Shown: in pieces, positions 17,336 through 21,016 of the stretch
Layout of the letters: each line of letters opens with the position of its first letter
Numbering within the stretch: position 1 is the first letter of the stretch
Origin: Schmidtea nova
Taxonomy: Eukaryota
Direction: 5' to 3'
DNA length: 55,817 bases
Assembly (NCBI GenBank): GCA_044892505.1
Contig: CM097882.1
Location: 475,230,001 to 475,285,817, forward strand
Position numbers and translations under genes: made by a program
Notes under the pieces: model-generated
The model's database searches: none
Seen by the model: only the letters and a program-made list of their open reading frames with translations
Told to the model about the DNA's origin: nothing

Positions 17336-17704
17336 TGTTGGGCCAGCCAAATCGAGCAGCATCTGAAAATAATATACAATCAATAAAATAAATTAAATAC
17401 AGAATAACAACAAAATAAATTACCAACACCAAAGCGTAACAAAATAGGCGGCAACATCTAAAAGAAATAAAATATAAATCAAACAACAAAAATCTTCAAA
17501 ACTCACTCATGCGAAGCAGATAAAATTGGAATATGACAGCGCGTGGGCGGATGTCACCAAAGACCTAAAACAAAAATAAAATAAAATAAATTGATGACTA
17601 AGAAAAACTTTCCGCATGATTAACCAAACAAATCGGCAAGTTAAGTTAGGCAGCAAAAAGCCGACAACATAAAAAATGAAGCAAACATACACACATACTC
17701 GATG

Positions 17705-17748
17705 CTGATTGGCTAACCAACAACACCGGTTCAGTATAAATACTGAAG
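17705..17748 (+). promoter_or_regulatory. LTR promoter: reverse CCAAT box (gattggct) and TATA box (tataaa) inside an 8-bp inverted repeat
   Basis: ctgattggct...ttcagtataaatactgaag is conserved in LTR copy 2 (minus strand, ~34795-34835), while the flanks diverge. Confidence 0.65.
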
Positions 17749-18853
17749 TAAAATCAGTATTTGAAAATGCCATTTTTACCAAGTGTAAGCTCTTGTGACT
17801 TACTGAAAACGTTGTAATACCGATTTCGAAGGAAAATAAAAGGTAATTTGGTGTTATATTTTTGATGTGTTTAAACCCTCGTAATTACTAATAACCATAT
17901 TAAAATCAATAAGGTTTTCCGGAGGCCTAACAGCCTGACGGATTCTCGGGCCTCTCAGCGCAACACAATCTTTCGGTTGTGAGGTGCTGATGCGGCGGGA
18001 CTATAGGTGTATTAAATATTTGGAGAGCGGAAGGGGGTTAAATGCACATAGGGTATCGAACAAGACTAACGATCATGAATGAAATCAAGGTAGAGATGAG
18101 CTAAGATCACAGTTATGCATCACGATGATAGGGTATCGAGTGTAAACTAATAGTCGCAAACAAGTGTAAAGTAAAGCCCGTTGTGTAGGGAGGATATATA
18201 TCGTGACGAAGTCCAGACGAGGGATGCGTGTAGTGAATAATATTAGTGCCGATGAATTAGGTGACGACGAGGGCAGGTATATGTCGACATTAGCGCGTAC
18301 GAGTTCGAGCATAGTGAACCTAGTATCAAGGGTTAAGGATAACCGATAACCTCCGGTAGCTGTGAAGGATGATAGATAAAATTACAAGCATTGCGAATCG
18401 ATAAAATGATGAACCCCAGCGAGTAAGGACCAGGGGGATTTACGAGAATCACCCGACATGATGTGATCATTGTTAGTTAAATGAGGAAGTAATCGAAAAC
18501 GATTGATGGGATTGGATGTGATTAAATAGCATCATCCATACATAAAGTGGTTGTAGATGAATGATTGAATCTGATTGTTGAAAGTTAAATATCATAGCGA
18601 TCCGATTAATGAATGCAGCAATCAGGCGTAACTGAATCGAAAAAAAAAAAAATAAAACGCGTAGCACAGTAACTTCAATCTACCATCCAACACGACCCAC
18701 ATCAAGACTACAGCGATTCCGACAACAATCTAGAAGGTACCCCCTCGGACCTACAGAACTTAAAACTTTAAGACGGGTGGGTTGACCAAAATAAATAGGC
18801 CCGTTATACCCTATAATCCATAGTTAACCAACAACCATCTTATTTAGAACACT

Positions 18854-19489
18854 ATGGTGAAGTTAGAGAATCTCCAAGTGAAGCCGATGATCACGCACCC
18901 GATAAAACTAGAAGACACCATCCTTCGCAAGAAACGGCGCACCCGCTCCGTAATCCGACACAATACGATCATAAACGTCAGAGGAGAAAACGAAGCACCT
19001 CGGAAGGTGACAGAAATATCACGTCGCCACCTACGACGGTGGATGAGGGCCCATATGAGCTCAGCGGCTAACACCCCAGCTTGCGTGTTTGGATTGCAAT
19101 TGCGGTGGGAAGGGGATACTGATTGGGTACTCTCCTCGGATCATAGCAAGCCGGAGAACCCCCGATGGTTCTATCAATTCTGCGATGAGTTACAGCAACC
19201 CCGCTGGCTGCTAAGTACCGGAACGATGACCGGAAAAGAGCTATACAAACTCGGATACCTGCTGCTAGACAGGCCTCGGTGTCGCTACACTGAGGAAGTC
19301 TTCACTTATTCCAATGCACCAGGAAGTGTTTCCATGGAACAACACCCCGAGCCCAAGGAGCTTCGCCTCTGGGAGGTGTTTATCTACAAGGATAAGCTGA
19401 GTTGGGACCCAGCCCCAGAAATGTATTGGGAGAATGGAATCCGTCGTGATGAGAATACCAGCGATCAGGAATTAAGACCCTTCCTCTAA
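18854..19489 (+). CDS. LTR-encoded ORF A, 211 aa, unknown function
   Basis: Intact ORF; clear homolog in LTR copy 2 (QLRWEGD, LLLDRPRC, APGSV, ELRLWEVF, WDP). Confidence 0.75.
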   Translation: MVKLENLQVKPMITHPIKLEDTILRKKRRTRSVIRHNTIINVRGENEAPRKVTEISRRHLRRWMRAHMSSAANTPACVFGLQLRWEGDTDWVLSSDHSKPENPRWFYQFCDELQQPRWLLSTGTMTGKELYKLGYLLLDRPRCRYTEEVFTYSNAPGSVSMEQHPEPKELRLWEVFIYKDKLSWDPAPEMYWENGIRRDENTSDQELRPFL

Positions 19490-19681
19490 ATCGCAAGGAA
19501 GTCGATCATTCGAAGAAAGATGATATGTGTGTTAAAAATAAATGTATTCAATTTTTGGGTTTTGTTATGACTTTGTGAGCATGAAGTGATCTAAGAGTGA
19601 AACACTTGTTTAATAATAAAGATAGTGACTGAGAGAACAGACAAATCATACATAACCCAATTAATGATACATTTTTCAGAA

Positions 19682-20245
19682 ATGAGTGAACATTCAACTA
19701 GGAACCACAAACAAGAGGCCAAAGAACATAAAGCACGATCGCGAGTCCTAGAAAACCGCTTGCGACAGCTCAACGACGAGCACCAGCGAATTAAAGCCAC
19801 GTGGTTCAACCCAGAGAGGGTAAAAACTATCCTGCAAGCCCGATACAGAGCGGAGCGAACAATCGACGAGCAAGCTAGGGAGGTAGCAGCCCTAAAGATG
19901 GAGCTGTCGAATTACTTGAGGGCATCAACCAAGGAGTTTATCACCGAGCAATTACGCCCAGTGATCAGGACTAGCACCTTTAATAGGTGGGTGGACACAA
20001 TATCGATGACAACAAGTACCCAAACGGAGATAGAAACCATCCCAATCACAACTACCCCAACATCCCCAATCATTCTGGAAGGCTCGAAACGAACAAAGAG
20101 ACGGAATCGCTTGGGAGCGAAAAAGCGTAGGGAGAGACGCGCGTATGCAGATCGCCTTGGAATCGAAGTAGACTTGCTCAGTGGTCTGTCCGAGCAAGAA
20201 CTACTAAATGTAATCCGGCCCTCTGTACTGTTAAACTATAAATAA
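19682..20245 (+). CDS. LTR-encoded ORF B (~187 aa from the ATG at 19682; ORF track opens at GTG 19625): coiled coil plus basic, NLS-like C-terminus
   Basis: Homologs in LTR copies 2 and 3 (WFNPERVK, STQTE, EGSKRTKRRNRLGAK). The ATG at 19682 aligns with the copy-2 start and follows tttttcag. Confidence 0.75.
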   Translation: MSEHSTRNHKQEAKEHKARSRVLENRLRQLNDEHQRIKATWFNPERVKTILQARYRAERTIDEQAREVAALKMELSNYLRASTKEFITEQLRPVIRTSTFNRWVDTISMTTSTQTEIETIPITTTPTSPIILEGSKRTKRRNRLGAKKRRERRAYADRLGIEVDLLSGLSEQELLNVIRPSVLLNYK

Positions 20246-20246
20246 A
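20241..20246 (+). terminator. Putative LTR polyadenylation signal AATAAA overlapping the ORF B stop codon
   Basis: AATAAA followed by a GT/T-rich tract; present at the equivalent position in LTR copy 2. Confidence 0.5.
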
Positions 20247-21016
20247 TGTATATAAATGAATGATTTGATTTGTCTTGTTTGTTTGACGTATGTATGAGAA
20301 TTAAAAGTAATGAAAACCTGGTTCATTTAAAGCTGCAGGTGTCTAAAAAGTAAATTACCCTAGAGCAAAGTAAAGAGCATAAGTGGGACCGAAAGAAATC
20401 CACAAACACCTTCTATCGGTAGTGGTGGACCCGTGAATAAACAAGGGAATAGTAGCCGAAAGGTTGCTCACCTGCCTTGTCATTTCACAACGTTGACACA
20501 GTACCAACATGATGAGTAGTTAGGGATACATCATGGGTGTCAGCGGGGAAATGTTTTTATGTTGGCGAGATCACCCTAACGTATAAAATCATAAGGATCT
20601 CAGTTGTCAATCTAACCAACACACCAGCATTAGTCAGCATTTTTCAAATTTGAAATCAACTTCTATAAATAATGAAATTTTATTAATGTTTAAAATTCAC
20701 AATTTTTTTGATTATATGTTATTGATTCTACAAAAGCGCTAAATAACGGCTAGGTTCAACATTTTTTCAAATCTTTAGTTATTTTAAAATAAATTCGAAA
20801 ATATAATTTACATTTTCAAAAATGCATTATTGTTTTATTAATATTCTATATTTAAATTACAATTTAAAATTCAAAATTTTACTTAAGTACTAAATAATTT
20901 CATAGCTATAAAATTTAAAATAATTTCTCTATTAAAGGATTTTTAAATTAATAAATTATTGTCAATTGAAATAAAATTTAAAAAGTTCTATTTAATAATT
21001 TGTTATTTTAACACAA

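Follow-up and report, generated by a model that had tools for sequence, protein, structure and literature searches.

The window, a 55,817-nucleotide stretch of Schmidtea nova DNA (assembly GCA_044892505.1, contig CM097882.1, positions 475,230,001 to 475,285,817, forward strand), contains the 3′ long terminal repeat (LTR) of a 29.5-kb Burro-type Ty3/gypsy element, and a pair of open reading frames, ORF A and ORF B, lies inside this LTR behind a predicted promoter. The LTR runs from TG to CA over 3,294 bp of the plus strand (17336..20629; an earlier sequence-only reading had ended it at 20621, which is corrected here). Its partner, the 5′ LTR, lies 26.3 kb upstream at contig coordinate 475221074, and the two are separated by 3 substitutions and a single indel over 3,294 bp; the host element is young. 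The assignment to Ty3/gypsy follows from the paired TG...CA LTRs, the 4-bp target duplication TTAG that flanks the whole element and is found directly 3′ of the 3′ LTR, a primer-binding site after the 5′ LTR, and the PR-RT-RH-IN domain order. Upstream of the LTR on the same strand lie the 3′ part of a 4,964-aa polyprotein (106..13209; its start is upstream of the window) with gag zinc knuckles, a fusion glycoprotein, PR, RT, RH, IN and ankyrins, and four internal accessory ORFs of 116, 470 (TRAF-like), 386 and 184 aa (13334..17065). In Pfam, the polyprotein matched PF24664 (E 3e-71), which marks the Env-like fusion protein and is placed before RVP, as well as zf-CCHC.

The predicted U3 region (17336..17755, plus strand) holds an ATTGG at 17708, TATAAATA at 17735 and an initiator-like TCAGT at 17754, and it is from these motifs that we infer the start site. 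Each is present in 38 of 38 LTRs of the same family (family 1) and in identical order in two further LTR families, 2 and C. The predicted leader exon that follows (17756..17842, plus strand) ends in an AATAAA (17835) fused to a splice donor, AG|GTA, with the intron beginning at 17843. Both the hexamer, which is followed by a GT-rich tract, and the donor are kept in 38/38 family-1 copies and, in family 2, in 10 of 11 LTRs whose promoter matches strictly. Against the weight of the hexamer as a signal, AATAAA is common in this A+T-rich DNA, occurring in 19–37% of 78-nt windows. The exon itself is hypervariable (72–94 nt across copies, p-distance 0.25), as is the intron (p 0.25), and despite this variation the promoter motifs, the proximal AATAAA, the donor, both acceptors and the distal AATAAA are present in all 38. 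An ATG occurs within the leader in 36/38 copies, with a reading frame open through the exon end in 11, and could hamper translation.

ORF A (18854-19489, 211 aa) is preceded by a TAG acceptor at 18845-18847 (feature 18843..19489, plus strand) and encodes a protein with a basic N-terminal part and a Trp-rich alpha/beta core; a poly(A) signal with a GT-rich tract behind it follows at 19537..19542 in 32 of 38 copies, and in family 2 at 16 of the 19 loci with an ORF A match. ORF B (19682-20245, 187 aa) starts at the ATG directly after a CAG acceptor at 19677-19679 (feature 19673..20245, plus strand), and an ATG stands at the aligned position in the other copies and is the start in copy 2, described below. 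Its product has a heptad-like helical N-terminal half, judged by eye to be a coiled coil, then a Thr-rich linker and a basic stretch with 12 K/R in 20 aa that has an equivalent at the same place in family C. A further poly(A) signal, at 20241..20246, overlaps the ORF B stop and leads into a GT-rich tract in 38/38 copies. The positions read earlier for ATTGG, TATAAATA, TCAGT, ORF A and the AATAAA at 20241 were all borne out, and that hexamer is conserved as a poly(A) signal; it is not the sole one, as those at 17835 (38/38) and 19537 (32/38) show. The fusion of AATAAA and donor some 85 nt past the predicted start, the acceptor before each ORF and the poly(A) signal after each had not been part of that reading.

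Both ORFs are protein-coding and under purifying selection. The dN/dS comparison that the sequence-only reading had proposed gave 0.20 for ORF A (666 pairs) and 0.08 for ORF B (509 of 528 pairs usable), and indels preserve the frame: net length change is divisible by 3 in 37/37 copies for ORF A and 34/37 for ORF B, compared with 16/37 for the intron and 11/37 for the spacer. A neutral reading, with the ORFs as passengers or antisense shadows that recent amplification has kept open, could draw on the frequent breakage of older copies (copies 2 and 3 among them) and on the absence of homologs outside this genome in our searches, but dN/dS stays at 0.07–0.18 even at dS >1, and this, together with the third-position excess, the frame-preserving indels and the same result in family C, makes such an account very improbable. 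For changes confined to a single copy, pN/pS is about double that of shared changes (0.45 vs. 0.23; 0.30 vs. 0.12), an excess that decay after insertion would be expected to produce; selection would act during element replication, with inserted copies decaying afterwards. The block of intron, ORF A and ORF B falls into deep haplotypes (dS 0.66), against a uniform backbone with dS of about 0.2.

The layout is common to three LTR families and is found in 5′, 3′ and solo LTRs. LTR copy 2, of family 2 (24722..35154, minus strand), has the promoter, the AATAAA with donor and the hairpins discussed below, and its 3′ end is hidden by N; homologs of both ORFs are indeed present there, as had been noted, with stops and a frameshift disrupting ORF A (33920-33295) and a non-LTR retrotransposon interrupting ORF B (about 32740-25352). 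Site-specific targeting of ORF B by that retrotransposon was considered and rejected, since of 25 copies only the one in the window has ORF B as its 3′ flank. LTR copy 3, an old member of the distant family C (43586..45869, plus strand, left end not fixed), contains a first ORF that is broken (44204-44580) and matches the profile of its own family with iE 2.9e-43, and an ORF B homolog (44926-45352) whose relationship to ORF B, proposed earlier, is real (hhalign 96.8%, E 2.4e-10); between ORF A and the first ORF of family C homology is not supported (hhalign 1.4%). The two ORFs of family C have dN/dS of 0.107 (11 copies) and 0.143 (12 copies), and the donor GTAAG and both acceptors are kept in 14 of 14 copies. 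No AATAAA lies between initiator and donor in any of the 13 copies scored for it; the candidate is instead a variant hexamer beyond the donor, AATATA or AATAAA at 16–20 nt past it in 13/13 scored, and AAUAUA is an enriched planarian poly(A) signal (PMC5068929).

At least 861 ends of this LTR were counted in the genome, the majority apparently solo. Among 37 sampled LTRs, 29 are solo copies with 4-bp target duplications, and ORF B is full length in 25 of these 29; solo LTRs do hold both ORFs, the layout that the earlier inference of expression from every solo LTR required. Such leftover solo LTRs have the layout that would let them make both proteins without the rest of the element.

The reading that best accommodates these signals, to which we give a probability of roughly 0.68, is that the LTR is a spliced two-gene unit. 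Transcription would start near 17756, and the 85-nt leader exon would be joined, via the donor at 17842/17843, to one of two last exons: that of ORF A, giving an mRNA that ends at 19537, or that of ORF B, giving one that ends at 20241. The same leader would probably also be spliced to the five internal accessory ORFs, at the acceptor of each. This start site and pattern of alternative splicing are likely, judging from conserved signals. All five internal ORFs have a YAG at most 9 nt before the ATG (13–14/14; 8/8), compared with 44 of 149 internal polyprotein ATGs; against the scheme, a canonical poly(A) signal falls within 75 nt of two of them in just 0/14 and 3/14. The earlier idea of a two-gene cassette stands insofar as two selected genes lie behind a promoter inside the LTR, with separately spliced mRNAs now favored over one transcript. 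A genome search for retroposed spliced or polyadenylated copies gave 0, 1 (chance-like) and 0 matches. In four runs over 13000-21800, contigs crossed a neighboring host intron gaplessly and so behave as DNA, which makes them uninformative on splicing and on expression level; the predicted junctions are absent among 15 listed of their 16 joints.

Where genomic RNA ends is the next question. In our view the odds are slightly better than even that the AATAAA at 17835 ends it in the 3′ LTR, whereas close to the cap, in the 5′ LTR, U1 bound at the adjacent donor masks this hexamer, for which foamy viruses offer a precedent, U1 there suppressing a poly(A) signal near a donor (PMC3694450). R would then measure about 100 nt, and both genes would lie in a 2.8-kb U5. 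Alternatively, genomic RNA might end at 20241, with an R of about 2.5 kb that places the genes at both RNA ends and with the proximal AATAAA yielding short abortive RNAs. The long R is what the sequence-only reading had proposed, and this alternative finds some backing in the AATAAA and GT-rich tract at that position (38/38, and 16/20 family-2 loci), in family C, which has a canonical signal after ORF B and none before the donor, and in the 2-kb non-coding R proposed in silico for rice Retrosat2 (PMC3485330). Yet the proximal hexamer is invariant within a hypervariable exon and is the first complete signal met by polymerase in the 3′ LTR, and the signal at 19537 would need skipping too, so that we regard a long R as not established and rather unlikely. 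The promoter-proximal AATAAA with its donor and the poly(A) signal lying between A and B favor instead a short R, with both genes in a long U5 and each on a spliced mRNA of its own. Under either model of R, minus-strand strong-stop DNA would be about 2.87 kb and carry both genes, and the conserved signals in the LTR imply that poly(A) sites in the 5′ LTR must be bypassed, as had been recognized earlier.

Two other ways of making the mRNAs are considerably less probable than alternative splicing from one leader. In an operon-like scheme, a polycistronic precursor would be cut at each poly(A) site and a spliced leader added in trans at each acceptor, which would suit the spacers of 74–190 nt, with their poly(A) signal followed by an acceptor near the ATG, in a phylum where spliced-leader trans-splicing occurs (PMC12582326). 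We consider this improbable because all three families keep a cis donor past the predicted start and because what stands ahead of ORF A is an intron-like stretch of 1 kb and no short spacer. Slightly less probable still is that A and B have small internal promoters of their own, the upstream TATA serving genomic RNA alone: foamy viruses do have an internal promoter (PMC3694450), and TATATAAA occurs some 35 nt ahead of the first ORF's acceptor in 8 of the 14 copies of family C, but the remaining 6 lack the motif whereas the YAG is retained in 14/14, there is no such TATA before ORF B, and the conserved donor would need another partner.

Within the predicted intron lie two conserved RNA hairpins (17918..17998, plus strand), a candidate packaging or regulator-binding element. 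Their 23 pairs are paired in 99.4% of cells, compared with 22–39% in slid controls, and the region has a z of −2.9; four pairs have double-sided changes, all tracking the family split and hence not independent events. Family C has independent hairpins of its own (z −3.8 to −8.0). Lying after the donor, the hairpins would be present only in unspliced RNA, where they would probably serve for packaging or for binding a regulator. The highly conserved LTR tail (20381..20629, plus strand, p-distance 0.034), which adjoins the primer-binding site, folds moderately (z −2.6) and shows no covariation, with no double-sided changes in 57 sequences and a z of −2.0 in that comparison. A search of 6 loci (34,719 bases, hairpins included) gave no Rfam match at E 1; the LTR in these loci shows no Rfam family of the sort that marks ribozyme- or small-RNA-bearing LTRs such as retrozymes and Cassandra.

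Remote homology and structure searches (Pfam, Foldseek, PDB, atlas) assigned neither protein to a known family. In Pfam, neither ORF A nor ORF B had a match at E 0.01, seven LTR ORF copies had none at E 0.1, and 22 copies of ORF B gave only sub-threshold hits, with no Rev, Rex or Tat family at E 0.1. Among proteins of near length, no homologs were found at E 0.01 for ORF A, for ORF B or for the family-C alignment of B; two profile-search matches of ORF A were both discarded as tandem-repeat artefacts. Foldseek with the ORF A model (pLDDT 62) returned nothing at E 0.001 (best Z 3.5), the model of the family-C first ORF (pLDDT 39) was uninformative, comparison with PDB sequences gave best E values of 0.51 and 0.04, the atlas gave no usable match for ORF A and at most 0.79 for ORF B, and metagenome and viral contigs held no relatives of the LTR ORFs. 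These blank searches do not demonstrate a new fold.

What the proteins do can be suggested from their features. ORF B may be an oligomer that binds RNA in the nucleus and acts as a regulator, shifting output away from short spliced mRNAs and toward the unspliced 26-kb genome, and ORF A an accessory factor, most likely against host silencing; as a joint guess, this falls a little short of even odds. The Tat/Rev-type reading of ORF B made earlier keeps its Arg/Lys-rich stretch and gains nearby hairpins, and family, structure and atlas searches gave no support for homology; a Rev/Tat-like role would be an analogy through the basic stretch and the hairpins only. More tentatively, hundreds of solo LTRs might supply B in trans, letting polymerase pass the many poly(A) signals and splice sites and so make the 26-kb genome, along with a counter-silencing A, as a swappable module; on the same doubtful footing, the intron-A-B block might be exchanged as a unit between hairpins and tail and kept diverse by piRNA conflict.

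Were this swappable-module reading true, the element would have its genes in U5 and copy them in a strong-stop DNA of 2.9 kb, and its solo LTRs would be active genes of the family. Solo LTRs are usually viewed as promoters without genes, and the ORFs known from LTRs precede the start site; here, an LTR present at 861 or more sites carries, past its promoter, genes that are under selection and have processing signals of their own. The arrangement offers a testable answer to how a retroelement RNA of 26–29 kb escapes premature termination, adds two protein families without known relatives, and bears on planarian piRNA work, in which Burro transcripts already serve as markers (PMC8532177).

Among known systems, the closest are Burro/GYPSM1 elements, of about 30 kb with polyproteins near 5,000 aa (4,873 and 5,140, compared with 4,964 aa in 29.5 kb here), which share the gag zinc knuckles, a fusion glycoprotein set in frame between gag and protease, the PR-RT-RH-IN series, ankyrins, and TRAF/MATH and RING accessory ORFs, although TRAF is here a separate downstream ORF, unlike in Burro/GYPSM1 (PMC6431247). 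BIR, BCL2-like, SMC-like and dUTPase-like motifs had no Pfam match here, several having been found in Burro/GYPSM1 by HHpred alone (PMC6431247). The available part of that account lists internal accessory ORFs and does not mention genes encoded in the LTR, splice signals or an R/U5 layout (PMC6431247), and our literature search found no account of genes in Burro LTRs; figures, Repbase, supplements or the original genome paper may show these ORFs.

Proteins such as HIV Rev and Tat and HTLV Rex are small, with an Arg-rich stretch, and work with structured RNA restricted to unspliced transcripts, the Rex element of HTLV among them (PMC3694450). ORF B resembles them in its Arg-rich stretch and its predicted spliced mRNA, and differs in having no sequence homology to them and in being wholly LTR-encoded. 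The U5 of foamy viruses is not known to carry genes. Their LTR includes, in R and close to the start, the major splice donor as well as a poly(A) signal, and identical LTRs must act differently at each end (PMC3694450); the foamy donor precedes the hexamer, an order shared by family C, whereas in families 1 and 2 the hexamer comes directly before the donor. Rice Retrosat2 and plant Ogre (LTRs >3 kb) likewise have a very long LTR with a TATA near its 5′ end, but their extra ORF is outside the LTR, and the available descriptions include no LTR-encoded gene (PMC3485330; PMC6431247). Long ORFs inside an LTR are known from MMTV sag, lentiviral nef and foamy viruses, where nef and sag occupy U3, the LTR's 5′ part, which precedes the start site (PMC2664473), so that a solo LTR would normally be unable to express them from the main promoter. 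In the Schmidtea element, by contrast, two sense ORFs, both of which have an acceptor and a poly(A) signal to themselves, lie past the TATA and past the only promoter motif set conserved in three families, from which the start site is predicted.

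The LTR that carries ORF A (18854-19489, 211 aa) and ORF B (19682-20245, 187 aa) is the 3′ LTR (17336..20629, plus strand) of a giant Ty3/gypsy element of 29.5 kb. An identical copy of ORF B lies 26,261 bp upstream in the same 1.25-Gb genome, within a 5′ LTR (G000:C1:475221074, in contig numbering) that differs from the 3′ LTR by 3 substitutions and 1 indel over 3,294 bp and is followed by the primer-binding site; TTAG stands on both flanks of the element, and the LTR ends at 20629. The 4,964-aa polyprotein comprises gag zinc knuckles, a fusion glycoprotein, PR, RT, RH, IN and ankyrins, and TRAF and RING proteins are among the accessory ORFs. 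The 3.9 kb from the 5′ LTR to gag (G000:C1:475224369-475228300) hold a 152-aa RING ORF, two tandem repeat arrays and, ~480 nt upstream of the gag ATG, a conserved GTAAGT with an acceptor-like TTTTAAG close behind. The last internal ORF ends in an exact 98-bp tandem duplication (16989-17184), which lengthens it to 184 aa here versus 174 aa in 13 other elements.

Judged by how their sequences have evolved, ORF A and ORF B are real genes. Forty LTR loci spanning 66-96% identity were taken from the ORF A match list, with preference for matches that had no evident partner; both ends could be recognised in 37, which were kept, 3 were excluded, and the window copy brought the sample to 38. Full-length ORF A is present in 37/38, a figure biased by the ORF A-based selection, and ORF B retains at least 90% of its length in 33/38. 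In pairwise comparisons A has a dN/dS of 0.20 (bootstrap 0.15-0.29) and B one of 0.08 (0.06-0.13), both still low where dS exceeds 1, and length changes preserve the frame of A in 37/37 copies and of B in 34/37 (four non-coding blocks: 11-16 of 37), which bears out the sequence-only reading's claim of two conserved genes. The pN/pS of singleton changes is about twice that of shared changes (Fisher p 5e-4 and 1e-4) and breakage of the ORFs is frequent in older copies, which argues that selection acts during element replication and not on inserted copies. Sequence and fold searches returned no detectable relative or fold match for either ORF; the N-terminal half of ORF B is helical, and its basic stretch is retained in all families.

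In the family of copy 2 (24722..35154, minus strand; family 2), ORF B is near 70% identical to that of family 1, to which the window 3′ LTR belongs, and ORF A 36-45%. Copy 3 (43586..45869, plus strand) is a member of the distant family C, whose second ORF is homologous to ORF B (hhalign 96.8%, E 2.4e-10); its first ORF is also under selection (dN/dS 0.107), and comparison with ORF A gives 1.4% in hhalign, establishing no tie. A full-length family-C element has similar accessory ORFs, and its relatives share the same primer-binding site.

The terminal 14-mer of the LTR has 861 exact matches (control 0) and is joined to the primer-binding site in 127 cases, which suggests that roughly 600 LTRs are solo or truncated. 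That solo LTRs would carry the cassette, as had been expected, is what we find: in a biased sample, 29 of 37 LTRs are solo with 4-bp duplications, and full-length B is present in 25 of these 29. Among 14 full-length elements picked to span ORF A diversity, dS is 0.18-0.24 for internal ORFs (U3 p 0.054) but 0.66 for A and B. Intron, A, spacer and B co-vary (Spearman 0.75-0.89; against internal ORFs, -0.21 to -0.04). The intron-A-spacer-B block therefore resembles a module, with deep haplotypes, flanked by two conserved arms; the choice of elements inflates this depth.

The signals from which we infer all processing steps stand in one order in 38/38 family-1 LTRs: ATTGG, TATAAATA, TCAGT, then AATAAA (17835 in the window) fused to AG|GTA, then a GT-rich tract, with 72-94 nt from TCAGT to the AATAAA-donor. 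A YAG acceptor lies ahead of each ATG (A and B) in 38/38, and AATAAA follows A in 32/38 and B in 38/38; the sequence-only reading overlooked the proximal AATAAA-donor, the acceptors and the poly(A) signal after A. A fourth AATAAA (20436) is present in the tail (20381..20629) in 38/38; the block around it is so highly conserved that its presence is not informative. A strict promoter match is found at 11/20 family-2 loci, 10 of those 11 having hexamer and donor (2 of the 20 were scored in the wrong orientation and entered as misses). Donor GTAAG and both acceptors are present in 14/14 delimited family-C loci (14 of 19); AATAAA precedes the donor in 0/13 scored, and AATATA or AATAAA lies 16-20 nt past it in 13/13, AAUAUA being an enriched planarian signal according to an excerpt of PMC5068929. 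The five internal accessory ORFs have a YAG within 9 nt of the ATG in 13-14 of 14 copies, or in 8/8 for the RING ORF among them, copies that are 91-97% alike and so not independent, against a background of 44/149 internal ATGs; the gag ATG has such a YAG in 0/7. A canonical poly(A) signal follows three of the five (the other two: 0/14 and 3/14), with a hexamer background rate of 19-37%.

The proximal hexamer beside the donor (17842/17843) resembles the foamy virus arrangement, in which polyadenylation at the 5′ end is blocked when U1 binds a donor within R (PMC3694450, in part), and it favours an R of ~100 nt with a coding U5 of 2.8 kb, a layout to which we give a probability of roughly 0.55. 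The two-gene cassette of the sequence-only reading is real; its R of 2.5 kb, on account of the same hexamer, is probably wrong, and we consider it unlikely. Strong-stop DNA would be ~2.87 kb under either model. Most likely, a short leader would be spliced to A or else to B, each forming a terminal exon that has a separate poly(A) site; the internal accessory ORFs probably receive this leader too. The genome would be unspliced RNA, the sole form with the hairpins, and ORF B is by analogy the natural candidate for the switch to it; the Tat/Rev-type role suggested for it by the sequence-only reading is a conjecture. The predicted leader exon (17756..17842) is hypervariable (p 0.25), uncorrelated with U3 and with the A-B block, and that of family C varies in length via short repeats.

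Two hairpins (17918..17998) lie 75-155 nt downstream of the donor. Across 37 distinct family-1 and family-2 sequences, 99.4% of cells pair (slid controls 22-39%), and double-sided changes occur at 4/23 pairs, all tracking the split between the two families. The corresponding place in family C is unrelated in sequence, yet it too folds into two strong hairpins (z -3.8 to -8.0, 13 copies). Rfam gave no match, and no covariation was found in the conserved LTR tail.

A host YL1/VPS72-like gene with a YL1_C domain (21017-24368, plus strand), whose N-terminal part we take to be YL1/VPS72-like as well, shares the orientation of the 3′ LTR and starts 388 bp past it; LTR transcripts may read through, or be spliced, into this gene. 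ORF B of copy 2 contains a non-LTR retrotransposon (25352-32740, minus strand) that has an RT and a poly(A) tail, is joined in frame to the first ~107 codons of that ORF in a 1,183-aa open frame and lacks a target duplication; site specificity for ORF B was rejected, since 25 copies have unrelated 3′ flanks. Copy 2 itself seems to be inserted into a separate gypsy pol fragment (RT, RH, IN; 35078-37249, plus strand), at whose start its 5′ end (35154) lies. Several mariner/Tc1 and pogo-type transposase remnants occupy 39466-53565.

This kind of element is already known, and the LTR cassette is a real, unusual feature of it. Genes within the LTRs of Burro elements are not described in the literature searched, nor do the available sections of PMC11410931 mention LTR genes; the original genome paper, figures, Repbase and supplements may draw these ORFs. 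BURRO1 is transcribed and under piRNA control in one planarian (PMC8532177, in excerpt), and the architecture of the present element agrees with the description of planarian Burro/GYPSM1 in PMC6431247, section 7, an agreement that points to a planarian host. Among other systems, nef and sag occupy the 5′ portion of the LTR (PMC2664473, in part), and a long R has been proposed for Retrosat2, but there the extra ORF lies outside the LTR (from part of PMC3485330).
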